From contig VGSJ01000003.1 of assembly GCA_016875015.1 (NCBI GenBank), positions 11,935 through 75,934 of the forward strand: 64,000 bases of DNA, read 5' to 3'. The first letter of the stretch is position 1. Each line of letters begins with the position of its first letter. Position numbers and translations under genes: made by a program. Source of the DNA: Deltaproteobacteria bacterium (GTDB lineage: Bacteria > Desulfobacterota > Desulfobaccia > Desulfobaccales > 0-14-0-80-60-11). Shown here one piece after another: positions 7,720-11,565 of this stretch. The notes beneath the pieces are model-generated. The model had not been told where the DNA came from, ran no database searches, and saw only the letters and a program-made list of their open reading frames with translations.

Positions 7720-9966
7720 ATGATACGTCGCCTGGCCGCTTTCGTTAAGTCGCCCATCGCCCGCTGGATCGTCGGCGTCACCCTGCTGATGAGCGCCCTG
7801 CTCATCTGGCGCCCCACCTTCTGCGAGTTTTTCGAACTCAAGCTCTACGATCTCAAGTTCCGGTTCCGGGGCACCCTCCCGGCCAGCCGACAGGTAGTCA
7901 TCCTGGCCATTGACGACGACAGCCTGAAGGCCGTGGGCCGCTGGCCCTGGTCCCGGGAGGACATGGCCCGAATGCTCACCCGGCTGAAACAGGCCGGTCC
8001 CCGGGTCATCGCCCTGGACATCATCTTTGCCGAAAAGGAACAAACGGTATCTTACCATGCCCTCCGGAAGCTGAGCGAGGCCTTGGCCCGGCGGGGGGTC
8101 TCGCCGGAGATCCTCAAACTTCTGGAGGTGGAGAAAAAGCGGGCCGACGTGGACCGTCAACTGGCCGAGGTCCTCGGGCAGGGTCCCCCCGTCATCCTGG
8201 GGTTCTTTTTCCGGAACTTGGGCGGCAAGTCCGGCGGGGTTGAGGCGGAAAAGCTCATGGGGGCTTCTTTCCTCCAGGCCTCCACCTATAACGTGGTGCG
8301 GCTCCTGGACACCAAACCTTCCCAGGTCCACCTGGTCGGCGCCGCCGGAATCGAACGCAATCTTCCGGAAATCACCGAGACCGCGGCCGGCGACGGCTAT
8401 TTCAACATGATTCCCGATCCCGACGGCACCGTGCGCTGGTCTCCCATGGCCGTCATGTATGGCGGGCAGTTCTTTGCCCCCATGTCCCTGGTGACCCTGT
8501 CCCACGCCCAGGCGAAGGCCCCCATGGCCATCACCCTGTCCCAGTGGGGGGTGAAGGAGATTCGCCTCGGGCGGCAGTCGGTGCCCGTGGACCGCTATGG
8601 CCGCATGCTCATCAATTTCCTGGGCCCCGAGACCGTCATACCCACCTATTCCGCCGCCGCCCTCCTGGACGGCACCCTGCCGGCCGAGGCCCTGAAGGAC
8701 AAGGTCGTCATCGTCGGGGCCACCGCGGTGGGCATCTATGACCTCCGGGTGACGCCTTTCTCCGGGAACTTCCCCGGGGTGGAGGTGCAGGCCACCATCA
8801 TGGACAACCTGCTCCGCGGCAATTTCATCCGCACCCCACCCTTCGGCCTGATCATCATGCTGCTGGTCCTGGTGGCTCTGGCAGTCATGCTGGGCCTGAC
8901 GCTGCCCCGGTTCTCCGCCGCCTGGGCCTTAATCTTCACCCTCATCGTCATAGAAAGCTACGTGGCCCTCAACTATGTCCTGTTCACCAGTCAGGGCCTG
9001 CAACTGGAACTGTTCTATCCCCTGGGCCTCATTGTCCTGGTCTACCTGGGGGTCACCATGCAGCGATTCCTGGCGGAGGAACGGGAGCGGGAGCGCATCC
9101 GCAAGACCTTTGAATCCTACGTGGCCCCCGCCGTCGTCCAGGAGATGCTGAAGCACCCCGAGCAGCTGCGCCTGGGAGGGGAGCGCCGGGAGATCACCGT
9201 CCTGTTCACCGACATCCGGGGCTTCACCACCATGTCGGAAAACCTGGCCCCCGAGGCTTTGGTAAAACTCCTCCACGACTTCCTCAATCCCATGAGCAAC
9301 ATTATCATCAACCAGGGGGGGACCATCGACAAGTACATGGGCGACGCCATCATGGCCCTCTTCGGGGCCCCGCTCATCCAGATGGACCATCCCCGCCTGG
9401 CTTGCCGGGCCGCCCTGGAGATGGTGGCCACCCTGGAGGCCCTGAACCGGACCTGGGCCGAGCAGGGCCGCCCGCCCCTGAAGGTCGGGGTCGGGGTCAA
9501 CACCGGCCCGGTGGCCGTGGGCAACATGGGCTCCGACCGGCTGTTCGACTACACCGCCATCGGCGACAACGTGAATCTGGCCTCCCGTCTGGAGGGGCTC
9601 AACAAATACTACGGCACCAGCATCCTCATCAGTGACGCCACCGCGCAAGCCCTAAAAAACGGCTTCATCCTCCGGGATGTGGACCTGGCAAGGGTCAAGG
9701 GCAAGGCCCAGGGGGTCCGCATCCATGAGTTGCTGGGAGAAGGCGAGCCGGGCCCGGACCTGGCCCGGTTCCTCGACTTATACCACCGGGCCCTGGCCCT
9801 CTACCGGGAGAAGCGCTTCGCCGAGAGCGTGTCCGCCTTCACCGAGACCCTAAAAGTGCGCCCCGGCGACGAGACCTGCCATCGCTACCTCACCCTGGCC
9901 CAGAAGCACCACGAAATCCCCCCCACCGACGACTGGGAAGCCGTAACGATCATGGATGGGAAGTAA
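7720..9966 (+). CDS. CHASE2-domain class III adenylate/guanylate cyclase with C-terminal TPR-like tail
   Basis: N-terminal TM helix, then a periplasmic CHASE2-type region (VVILAIDDDSLKAVGRWPWSRE...). TM cluster at aa ~365-440. Cyclase catalytic core: ITVLFTDIRGFTTMSE, KYMGDAIMALFGAP, GVNTGPVAVGNMGS, YTAIGDNVNLASRLEG. Confidence 0.9.
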   Translation: MIRRLAAFVKSPIARWIVGVTLLMSALLIWRPTFCEFFELKLYDLKFRFRGTLPASRQVVILAIDDDSLKAVGRWPWSREDMARMLTRLKQAGPRVIALDIIFAEKEQTVSYHALRKLSEALARRGVSPEILKLLEVEKKRADVDRQLAEVLGQGPPVILGFFFRNLGGKSGGVEAEKLMGASFLQASTYNVVRLLDTKPSQVHLVGAAGIERNLPEITETAAGDGYFNMIPDPDGTVRWSPMAVMYGGQFFAPMSLVTLSHAQAKAPMAITLSQWGVKEIRLGRQSVPVDRYGRMLINFLGPETVIPTYSAAALLDGTLPAEALKDKVVIVGATAVGIYDLRVTPFSGNFPGVEVQATIMDNLLRGNFIRTPPFGLIIMLLVLVALAVMLGLTLPRFSAAWALIFTLIVIESYVALNYVLFTSQGLQLELFYPLGLIVLVYLGVTMQRFLAEERERERIRKTFESYVAPAVVQEMLKHPEQLRLGGERREITVLFTDIRGFTTMSENLAPEALVKLLHDFLNPMSNIIINQGGTIDKYMGDAIMALFGAPLIQMDHPRLACRAALEMVATLEALNRTWAEQGRPPLKVGVGVNTGPVAVGNMGSDRLFDYTAIGDNVNLASRLEGLNKYYGTSILISDATAQALKNGFILRDVDLARVKGKAQGVRIHELLGEGEPGPDLARFLDLYHRALALYREKRFAESVSAFTETLKVRPGDETCHRYLTLAQKHHEIPPTDDWEAVTIMDGK

Positions 9967-10097
9967 GATTGTTGGATTAGCGACCACAAGATGAAGAGGA
10001 TTAAATCAGCGGGCAAGGCTCTTTTAACTTTCTAATCTCACTTCAAATATTGTCATTATATCGCAACATGTTGGAATGTGAAGATAGTGGCAAGCTG

Positions 10098-10745
10098 GTG
10101 CGCCACGAGGGCGCTTGGAGTAATAAGCGTGCGCAACTGCACGAGAGATGGGGGCGGGCCCCCCGGAGCCGGCTTGCAGGAGCAGGCTCCAAACCACCTT
10201 AAGCTGCGCTGGTTAAGAGCCAGGGTGGTGAGCGTTAAGGACAAGTCATGGCTAAAGACCGTGGCAGGTGAGGTTCAGGGAGACGAGCAGCCGCGAACCA
10301 CTGATGAGGTGTCGAAACACTAAAGACGACGTCAAAACTGGAGGCTAGCTTGACTCCAGGACAAACCCAGAGGGAACCTGCTTACTGCCTGGGTGGCGTC
10401 CGGCATAAAGGTGGCGTGAACCTGAACCAGGCTCTCGAGCGGAACGTGGGAACCTGTCGTCCCGATGTGAAGGGAGAAGCTCAAGTGGAGGACCCATGAG
10501 AGTGAGAGTACCGAGGCGGGGCACAGGGGCGGAACAACCCGTAGTAGCGAGGAAGTCCCGTAACAGGGATGGAGCGAAGGGGTTGTATCGATCGGCTTTA
10601 TTGGATGGTCAACCAGCAATGGGAGGAGCCATTGGGTAAGGCAAGGCCGTGTTATTGCGGTTGATCGATGGGAGCCGGATGAGTCGAGAGATTCATGTCC
10701 GGTTCTGGGAGGGCGTGGGGGTGAGATTCCCCCACGCTACTCGAC
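10098..10745 (+). mobile_element. ORF-less group II intron RNA (5' end ambiguous: 10098 or 10129)
   Basis: Canonical 34-nt domain V at 10672..10705: GAGCCGGAUGAGUC-GAGA-GAUUCAUGUCCGGUUC, with AGC triad, 2-nt bulge and GNRA loop. Domain VI hairpin at 10709..10742 has a bulged A at 10739, six nt before a terminal AC at 10745. The GUGCG 5' consensus occurs at 10098 and again at 10129. Domain IV is reduced to a ~90-nt hairpin, and there is no reverse-transcriptase ORF. Confidence 0.65.
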
Positions 10746-10977
10746 TCCACCCTTATAAAATCCATTACCGCGGGTTGATATGGATATCTTAGCTCTATCT
10801 CATACCCTGGCGACATTTAAAGTTTTAGTCCAAAGTGTCAGGTCTAATCCGGTCTCGGTTTGATGATTGTCAGTGCAACTCTTGGTCATTACCGCTTAGG
10901 CCAGGGGCTTTGCCGTATTTTCCGTATGTTCCCTAAGTGCCCCGTCCTACCCTTTCTTAAGAAAAATCTTACTCACT

Positions 10978-11565
10978 TCAATGCGACAAAAACGGCAGGT
11001 GAAAAAACAGGAAAAACCCGTTCAGGCATAACAGGGCGCCGAGAACGGCGGCGGTGAGGGCCACCCCAAAAATGGCCCGGGATTGGGACAGGATGGCCAC
11101 GGTGGCCATCACGATGGCAATCTGCAGCAGGACCTCGGAGAAGTCAAAATACGGGTCTTGGCGGCGGGCGGTATCCCGTTCGTGTTCCAGCTTGCGGGCG
11201 TCATTTTCGATGTCTTTCCGCTCCTTGCCGTAACGTTCCTCCTGGGTGGCCATCTGCTTGAGCAAGGTTTCGTAGCGCTGCCTGATCTCCGGCTTCAAGG
11301 CCTCTTTTTCCAGAAGGTCTAGCTCCAGGCGCATTTTCTGGCCGCGATAGAAATGCTCCCGGCCCGCCTTGGCCTGGTAAAAGGCCCACTGGTCTGACGC
11401 CTGCTGCTGGGCCAGGATCATTTCTTTCATGGCATTACTGCCGCCCAGGGAGCTGAAGGCCAGAATGACCGCAAAAATAGCGGTGGTGAGGGCCACCCGC
11501 CGGGTAAATTTGTGACTCATGACCTCTTCCAGCTCTTCGGGCTTGGGGAGTTCAACTTCGGCCAT
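10978..11565 (-). CDS. DUF4337-like membrane protein
   Basis: 195 aa with an N-terminal TM helix (VALTTAIFAVILAFSSL), a coiled-coil middle (QQQASDQWAFYQAKAGREHF...) and a C-terminal TM pair. This pattern matches what I recall of DUF4337. Confidence 0.6.
   Translation of the reverse strand: MAEVELPKPEELEEVMSHKFTRRVALTTAIFAVILAFSSLGGSNAMKEMILAQQQASDQWAFYQAKAGREHFYRGQKMRLELDLLEKEALKPEIRQRYETLLKQMATQEERYGKERKDIENDARKLEHERDTARRQDPYFDFSEVLLQIAIVMATVAILSQSRAIFGVALTAAVLGALLCLNGFFLFFHLPFLSH

Follow-up and report, generated by a model that had tools for sequence, protein, structure and literature searches.

Identity and Boundaries of the Intron

The window analyzed here, a 64-kb stretch of contig VGSJ01000003.1 from a deltaproteobacterium that the names of neighboring proteins mark as Desulfobaccales-like, harbors a complete group II intron of 648 nt (10098–10745, + strand) that lacks an internal open reading frame (ORF). 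The intron lies between two convergent genes, a CHASE2/guanylate-cyclase-domain gene (7720–9966, + strand) and a DUF4337 gene (10978–11565, − strand), and is inserted 131 nt past the stop codon of the CHASE2 adenylate/guanylate-cyclase gene, on the same strand. Its GC content is 59%, compared with 39% and 44% in the flanks. An initial annotation, made from the letters of the window, had placed here an element of ∼0.62–0.65 kb in an AT-rich spacer between the cyclase and DUF4337 genes and outside any recognizable host gene. This description is correct in each respect, yet the site is not a random one, being matched to the exon-binding sites (EBS) of the intron and located in a repeated family of AT-rich sequences, as discussed below.

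Covariance-model searches, proposed as a check in the initial annotation, identified two parts of the ribozyme with scores above the Rfam gathering cut-offs. RF01999 (group-II-D1D4-2) aligns to 10150–10269 with 110.8 bits (E-value 5e-22; cut-off 36), and RF00029, which describes domains V and VI (D5 and D6), aligns to 10670–10745 with 58.0 bits (cut-off 40). The further matches in a permissive Rfam scan of 9800–11100 were all to D5 models, with weaker scores, and none was to another RNA family. In nhmmer searches the intron was matched end to end, over model positions 2–650. The identical arrangement is found on six independent metagenome contigs (L006–L009, L011, and L214; L numbers denote the loci compared in this work) and is therefore not an assembly artifact. 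No further intron copy was found within the 64-kb window, where the element is single copy.

The sequence GTGCG is present twice near the 5′ end, at 10098 and 10129, and both positions had been put forward as candidate starts. In an alignment with three ORF-less plasmid relatives and an ltrA-carrying Mesorhizobium intron, conservation begins at GTGCGCCACGA, which corresponds to 10098. A 5′ end at 10129 is ruled out, as 10098 is where conservation with the relatives begins, the ltrA-carrying L003 among them, and 10092–10097 is the segment that pairs with EBS1; the second GTGCG falls in the 3′ strand of a variable hairpin of domain I (D1). The termini of the intron are thus 5′ GUGCG at 10098 and 3′ GAC ending at 10745.

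Structural Integrity of the Ribozyme

The fold was derived with RNAalifold from an alignment of 41 ORF-less copies that are mutually <95% identical. The consensus comprises six domains with 167 base pairs in 32 helices, and 120 of the 167 pairs show compensatory change among the 41 copies. Its domains lie in the window as follows:

10098–10442, + strand: domain I (RNAalifold consensus of the 41 relatives, mapped to the window)
10108–10136, + strand: variable 5′ hairpin of domain I, holding the second GTGCG
10137–10147 paired with 10432–10442, + strand: main D1 stem (RNAalifold consensus)
10453–10527, + strand: domain II (D2; consensus helices 18–22)
10534–10586, + strand: domain III (D3; helices 23–25, with compensatory change in 6 of the 8 pairs of the basal helix)
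10587–10669, + strand: remnant of domain IV (D4), from comparison with the ORF-containing sisters L195 and L175 (1862–1864 nt)
10587–10592 paired with 10664–10669, + strand: D4 basal stem (6 of 6 pairs covary)
10672–10705, + strand: domain V, 34 nt (RF00029 alignment; helix 31)
10709–10742, + strand: domain VI (helix 32, with compensatory change in 8 of 13 pairs)

In the consensus fold, 97.0% of the paired cells hold base pairs, compared with 81.9% when partners are shuffled and 38–47% when partners are slid by one to three columns. The covariation score of the fold is 0.50, compared with 0.08–0.10 in the slid controls. These controls therefore indicate that the ORF-less family has been under selection for the whole ribozyme fold, and the support among relatives extends to D1–D3, the part that the initial annotation had singled out for folding. 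RNAalifold also proposed a long-range helix, 10099–10104/10528–10533, which we do not rely on, as its variation is nearly one-sided (C or U opposite G).

The window copy makes 166 of the 167 consensus pairs and departs from the family at only two of the 231 columns that are conserved at ≥95%, which places it among the best-preserved of the 41 copies. D5 contains the AGC triad (10673–10675), a GAGA loop (10686–10689), and a 2-nt bulge on the 3′ strand, and D6 contains the unpaired A10739, the putative branch point, which is invariant in the 41 ORF-less relatives. Both domains had been read correctly in the initial annotation, D5 at 10672–10705 with its triad, bulge, and tetraloop, and D6 with a bulged A at 10739 and a terminal AC. 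Thus, the window copy is no decayed fragment and its core is structurally intact. The alternative raised at the time, an inert fragment carrying D5 and D6 alone, is refuted by the covariance models, the covariation in D1–D3, the exon pairings, and the existence of full-length relatives that encode an intron-encoded protein (IEP).

Exon Recognition and the Insertion Site

Pairing between EBS and the intron-binding sites (IBS) of the exons was analyzed in 54 nonredundant complete ORF-less copies from public genomes. The elements in the window are as follows:

10346–10351, + strand: EBS1, UAGCUU, in the terminal loop of helix 10338–10343/10354–10359
10318–10322, + strand: EBS2, CACUA, a family-variable segment complementary to its own flank slightly upstream of IBS1
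10408, + strand: EBS3, A, pairing with the first 3′-exon base, T10746
10085–10089, + strand: IBS2, UAGUG, in the 5′ exon, forming 5 pairs with EBS2
10092–10097, + strand: IBS1, AAGCUG, the final 6 nt of the 5′ exon, forming 6 pairs with EBS1, one of them G-U
10746, + strand: IBS3, U, the first base of the 3′ exon, pairing with A10408

Across the copies, the EBS1 of a copy pairs with the six flanking bases just 5′ of that copy at a mean of 5.51 of 6 positions, compared with 4.35 ± 0.11 for shuffled flanks, and the observed pairing was reached in 0 of 2000 flank shuffles. The corresponding values for EBS2 are 4.82 of 5 positions and 4.27 ± 0.07. In 30 of 35 copies the base in the alignment column of A10408 can form a Watson–Crick pair with the +1 exon base, and each of the four bases occurs in this column. 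In the window copy EBS1–IBS1, EBS2–IBS2, and EBS3–IBS3 all pair, making the site recognizable by the intron. These pairings, another check that had been suggested at the outset, fix the 5′ boundary at 10098. The match is the signature of an insertion by reverse splicing, and it supplies the exons required for splicing in place.

The 5′ flank that contains the homing site recurs elsewhere in the clade:

10040–10097, + strand: repeated AT-rich 5′ flank with the homing site (...GCAAC..GATAGTGGCAAGCTG/, the slash here and below marking the insertion point), from clade flanks on unrelated contigs

The insertion sites of the clade share an upstream architecture of ∼65 nt, TATCCAGATCATATCTGCAAyTTTT-N13-GATAA-N10-TGGCAAGyTA/TCaAC, found on contigs (L178, L212, L182, L185, L193, L177, L211, L102, L112, L197, L136, and L144) that are otherwise unrelated and have different downstream genes. 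The homing site seems to be part of a repeated AT-rich element, which might be promoter-like or resemble a miniature inverted-repeat transposable element.

Loss of the ORF and the ORF-Containing Sisters

D4 of the window copy is a stub, in agreement with the short D4 reported initially. Its D4a-like part retains a Shine–Dalgarno-like sequence, GGGAGGAG (10621–10628), and a TTG start codon (10632–10634), which opens an ORF remnant of ten codons (10632–10664; LGKARPCYCG*) that is closed by a stop, and a stub hairpin is located at 10645–10662. ORF-containing sisters were recovered by a metagenome scan with a clade-specific 28-mer. Their D1–D3 regions are 95.9% (L195 and L177), 93.9% (L175 and L183), and 90.6% (L144) identical to that of the window intron, their EBS1/EBS2 region departs from that of the window copy by a few bases at most, and they are inserted at sites, ..TGGCAAGnTR/ or ..GGGCAGTTA/, that resemble the one in the window. 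The sister L195 is 1862 nt long. Compared with it, the window copy is ∼1214 nt shorter and lacks the stretch from about codon 11 of the IEP through to its last three codons.

All 15 of the 15 ORF-less clade members listed have the same 62–63-nt spacing between D3 and D5 and the same stub hairpin, start codon, and ∼10 codons, and the stub hairpin shows compensatory changes among ORF-less members. The shared D4 junction therefore indicates that one deletion derivative proliferated. A further copy, L193 (3214–2461, − strand), is 95.5% identical to the window intron in D1–D3 and carries a different, smaller ORF deletion: its D4 is 165 nt long and still includes ∼110 nt from the IEP gene's 3′ end. 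Loss of the ORF therefore recurs in the clade.

The IEP of L195 is a protein of 416 amino acids with RVT_1 and GIIM as its only domains, lacking an endonuclease domain, and ends ..KPSLFSHWQLASHLLAGR (..PSLFSHW). Its tail, L-RRI-R-SQK-P-S-LF-S-HW, agrees with the class D C-tail motif LX3AX3PXLF[V/A]HW described for RmInt1, RmInt2, and Sr.md.I1 (PMC4615759) at the L, P, LF, and HW positions and differs at the A and V/A positions. In a neighbor-joining tree of D1–D3, ORF-containing copies are interspersed with the ORF-less clades of other hosts. The ORF-containing copy in L127, for example, is 88% identical to the ORF-less copies of its own genome, and an ORF-containing relative and an ORF-less copy occur within one 8-kb stretch in L020, L021, L046, L120, and L127. 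Thus, full-length relatives with a matching IEP, which the initial annotation had recommended be sought in the rest of the genome, do exist, but the close sisters turned up in other metagenomes only and not, so far as shown, in the genome of the window.

D1–D3 of the window intron is 74–76% identical to multi-copy Sinorhizobium, Rhizobium, and Mesorhizobium introns carrying ltrA. The multi-copy introns of S. meliloti have been described as the IIB3/class D elements RmInt1 and RmInt2 (PMC5894124), and from that description the rhizobial ltrA introns are probably of RmInt1/RmInt2 type. Because the tail of the sister IEP resembles the class D motif and the ribozyme is 74–76% identical to these rhizobial introns, we refer to the window intron as RmInt1-like (IIB3/class D-like), a provisional label, the window copy having no IEP of its own by which it could be strictly assigned to class D. 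Its recognition of the 3′ exon through EBS3–IBS3 is of the IIB type.

Probable Mobilization by a Protein Supplied in Trans

We consider it probable that the window intron is a non-autonomous element that reached its site by reverse splicing and relies on an IEP made elsewhere and acting in trans. Its ancestor would have carried a reverse transcriptase (RT)/maturase ORF of ∼1.25 kb in D4, from which a single deletion would have removed ∼1.2 kb, so that D4 kept its basal stem, its D4a region, where the Shine–Dalgarno sequence and start codon lie, and a short closing hairpin. The compact ribozyme may then have spread, and the window copy would have been reverse spliced, by retrohoming or by retrotransposition, into a DNA site able to pair with EBS2, EBS1, and EBS3 in a repeated AT-rich intergenic sequence 131 nt downstream of the cyclase gene. 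The intron would be transcribed, probably by read-through from the cyclase gene; the + strand between that gene and the intron yielded no terminator-like site, which makes read-through plausible. For efficient splicing in vivo and for renewed mobility, the RT/maturase of a related ORF-containing intron would act in trans. What the sequences show is the identity, boundaries, and intact fold of the window intron, its exon pairings, the shared deletion junction, and the existence of near-identical ORF-carrying sisters, whereas its transcription, complementation in trans, and current activity are inferred.

There is precedent for such a system. The ORF-less introns of Thermosynechococcus elongatus, which have one shared deletion, are mobilized in trans by driver IEPs (Mohr et al. 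2010, PMC2882425), and the RmInt1 IEP functions in trans (PMC4615759). For bacterial ORF-less introns, a related IEP is nearly always found in the same genome (review, PMC4424553), in agreement with the ORF-containing and ORF-less copies that we find within 8 kb of each other in five loci. The window intron is thus of a known kind, an ORF-less and presumably trans-mobilized bacterial group II intron, of which the locus adds one instance, although such ORF-less copies in the RmInt1-like lineage and in this host group seem to be undescribed in the literature searched.

Several observations weigh against a mobile, protein-dependent intron at this locus. The initial annotation had noted the lack of an RT/maturase ORF in the element, and no RT gene was found either in the intron or elsewhere in the 64-kb window (best tblastn E-value 0.84). 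In the sample series of the window, the scan yielded ORF-containing relatives in L162, L170, and L208 only; their ribozymes are 74% identical to that of the window intron, and they lie on contigs of different composition (64–67% GC). Given this identity and the difference in contig GC, these introns cannot be assigned to the host of the window. The IEP of their subfamily is 67% identical to the L195 IEP and its D4a is nearly identical. In addition, the window copy has AGCC (∼10289–10292) in a D1 hairpin loop where most relatives have GCAA, a change that might weaken one tertiary contact. Finally, no unoccupied orthologous site was found among the three DUF4337 orthologues checked (87–89% identical), in which synteny ends right past DUF4337; with no empty allele observed, insertion appears likely from the EBS/IBS pairing.

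Some of these observations would fit an inert relic that has lost its ORF, has no helper protein in its genome, and is decaying, capable of neither efficient splicing nor movement. The absence of an RT gene from the 64 kb, the single copy, and the altered GNRA loop all agree with this, and for an intron between convergent genes in an intergenic position failed splicing would be free of cost. We nonetheless regard this explanation as unlikely, as decay is what the sequence does not display: all but one of the 167 pairs are formed, only two deviations occur in 231 conserved columns, and the EBS/IBS pairings are intact. Moreover, clade members that are 89–95% identical occupy many different EBS-matched sites, which argues that the lineage has been mobile recently.

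Two further explanations, each of very low probability in our estimate, dispense with the protein or with mobility. In one, the intron would resemble the HYERs and need no IEP, acting as a hydrolytic, sequence-guided DNA/RNA endonuclease or reverse splicing without protein. The family is indeed ORF-less, ∼0.65 kb long, and multi-copy in many genomes (at least 119 stretches), and some group II ribozymes reportedly hydrolyze DNA and integrate without any protein (PMC11754743; PMC12990946). However, HYERs belong to class IIC (PMC11754743; PMC12990946), whereas the window intron has EBS2, EBS3, and a 34-nt D5 and is not preceded by a terminator hairpin on the + strand. These same features, including the lack of an upstream terminator-like site, rule out a terminator-targeting class IIC intron, a type marked by the absence of EBS2, a short D5, and insertion behind a terminator-type hairpin. 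Furthermore, the ORF-less copies have kept D4a, where an IEP usually binds, in conserved form together with its Shine–Dalgarno sequence and start codon, the branch A does not vary, and ORF-carrying sisters occur at similar targets, with ORF-carrying relatives co-occurring in some genomes. For the family as a whole, it is likewise very unlikely that ORF-less RmInt1-like introns, the window copy included, persist and act without a cognate host IEP, by protein-free HYER-like DNA targeting or reverse splicing; if they did, they would not be mere parasites of autonomous introns, and protein-free biology would extend from class IIC to an IIB3-type ribozyme whose guide is longer and has three parts (EBS1, EBS2, and EBS3). 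In the other explanation, the intron or the flanking repeat would have been co-opted as a cis-element regulating a neighboring transcript. Such domestication could be read from its position, with a conserved, repeated AT-rich sequence around it and a conserved 145-nt noncoding element immediately downstream, and from an arrangement that is fixed in 6 of the 6 contigs spanning the intron, and a regulatory role has been suggested for FRE652 (PMC5894124). Against it, no gene follows the intron on its strand, the 145-nt element has neither an Rfam match nor a significant fold, the genes downstream of other clade members are mutually unrelated, and mobility alone accounts for conservation of the full ribozyme. 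A non-autonomous intron served in trans by a related IEP is thus the explanation that we favor.

Comparison with Known Systems

The closest parallel to this proposal is provided by the TeI3/TeI4 introns of T. elongatus (PMC2882425). There, too, a single deletion in an ORF-containing intron gave rise to ORF-less copies that have the same break-points and still show remnants of the ORF at its N- and C-terminal ends, the ribozymes are compact, and good EBS/IBS matches are found at diverse sites, mostly intergenic or in mobile elements. In T. elongatus, mobilization by related IEPs in trans was demonstrated. Its introns are, however, of the CL/IIB1 type with endonuclease-containing IEPs, in contrast to the RmInt1-like window intron, whose sisters' IEPs lack an endonuclease domain, and their host is a cyanobacterium rather than a Desulfobaccales-like deltaproteobacterium, of which the 64-kb window holds one copy and no helper gene.

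With the Sinorhizobium IIB3 (class D) introns RmInt1, RmInt2, and Sr.md.I1 the window intron shares target recognition through EBS1, EBS2, and EBS3, and its sisters' IEPs are ∼416–419 amino acids long, with RT and X domains, without D/En domains, and with a PxLF[A/S]HW tail that resembles the class D motif. Unlike those introns, the window copy is without an ORF, the sister IEP motif is partial (R for A and S for V/A), and the target is an AT-rich intergenic repeat rather than an IS630-family transposase gene. HYERs (Liu et al. 2024) are likewise ORF-less ribozymes of ∼0.6 kb with several copies per genome, but they are IIC elements with a single 6-nt target recognition site, whereas the IIB-like window intron uses EBS1/EBS2/EBS3 and keeps D4a and the branch A. 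FRE652, an RmInt1-derived element of S. meliloti and S. medicae (PMC5894124), is similar in being ∼650 nt long, RmInt1-like, without an IEP, and persistent in genomes. It is a 5′ fragment consisting of D1–D3 and part of D4, with no D5 or D6, in contrast to the window element, which has both and is a complete ribozyme.

Genomic Surroundings

No gene lies after the intron on its own strand, and among clade members there is no consistent downstream host gene, the downstream genes being mutually unrelated. The intron interrupts no known noncoding RNA gene, as no Rfam family was found in its flanks or in L147. The conserved noncoding element mentioned above lies immediately 3′ of the intron:

10749–10895, + strand: conserved noncoding element of ∼145 nt, 86% identical to L207 1006–1153 and L147 1653–1802

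This element (ACCCTTATAAAATCC...GGGTTGATATGGATATCTTAGC...GATGATTGTCAG...) begins 3 nt beyond the 3′ end of the intron and occurs once in the window. In L207 it lies 3′ of another intron copy, whose EBS1 and 5′ flank both differ from those of the window copy, and in L147 it has no adjacent intron, where it may represent an empty site. The element may not necessarily be part of the intron itself. On the minus strand, 10055–10082 contains a sigma-70-like sequence, TTCACA-16 nt-TATAAT, which matches at 11 of 12 positions and faces the 3′ end of the cyclase gene; ∼0.5 such sites would be expected by chance in the region scanned.

The Wider Family of ORF-Less Introns

ORF-less relatives were counted in a one-genome-per-species collection using a D3-D4-D5 pattern that is satisfied by short-D4 copies only (loci L012–L130). 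At least 119 stretches contain ORF-less relatives, and among the matches listed these come from Alphaproteobacteria, Deltaproteobacteria/Thermodesulfobacteriota, Acidobacteriota, Bacteroidota, Rhodothermales, Bacillota, NC10, Binatia, Nitrospiraceae, Planctomycetes, and Actinomycetota. Some metagenome-assembled genomes (MAGs), such as MFD03975.bin.2.110, carry six or more ORF-less copies. A 2015 review described bacterial ORF-less group II introns as rare (PMC4424553), and a 2022 survey had already recorded ORF-less expansions in some genomes (PMC8919778). For the RmInt1-like lineage the view that they are rare seems outdated. Thus, of the initial reading of the window element as ORF-less with an apparently intact core, the core is borne out by Rfam and covariation, and the notion that being ORF-less is unusual does not hold in this lineage, where it is common.

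At the level of the locus, the result is mainly one of annotation: the spacer contains no genes, and the non-autonomous mobile intron in it is intact and does not evidently affect the genes on either side. The family-level picture is the more notable. The members are compact IIB-type ribozymes with programmable recognition of ∼12 nt of target and natural helper IEPs, which makes them candidate starting points for gene-targeting tools.

Part of the family also departs from the canonical intron start. Among the 54 nonredundant ORF-less copies, 28, which make up a mostly alphaproteobacterial clade, begin with U or C (UUGUG, UUGCG, CUGUG, or UUAUG) and not with the canonical G of GUGYG (loci L005, L030, L042, L066, L045, L077, L111, L034, L015, L089, L027, L063, L056, L129, L020, L122, L039, L067, L021, L115, L060, L087, L120, and L061). 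Where the same MAG also holds an ORF-containing relative at this type of target (L020 4568 and L021 5494), that relative begins with GUGUG. The unusual boundary is borne out by EBS1–IBS1 pairing, and many of the copies that begin with U or C end in GGC, not GAC.

Head-to-tail tandem introns with no spacer between them were found in six loci (L066 3744–2452, L078 4793–3527, L052 817–2156, L071 6466–5503, L014 3656–2489, and L139 1698–2373), as pairs of two ORF-less copies or of an ORF-containing and an ORF-less copy. These tandems fit a second insertion that used the IBS1/IBS2 site of a resident copy and landed upstream of it.

Finally, a related subfamily whose D1–D3 is ∼74% identical to that of the window intron is mostly ORF-containing (L135, L137, L140, L149, L151–L153, L161, L162, L169–L171, L181, L186, L199, L203–L205, L208, L216, L217, L221, and L224), with ORF-less copies at L052 817 and L098 2009. 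Its members always lie directly after the YADD-coding motif (TAyGCnGAyGAy/) of the RT genes of other group II introns. These are nested introns that disrupt the RT active site of a rival intron, and three examples come from the sample series of the window itself.

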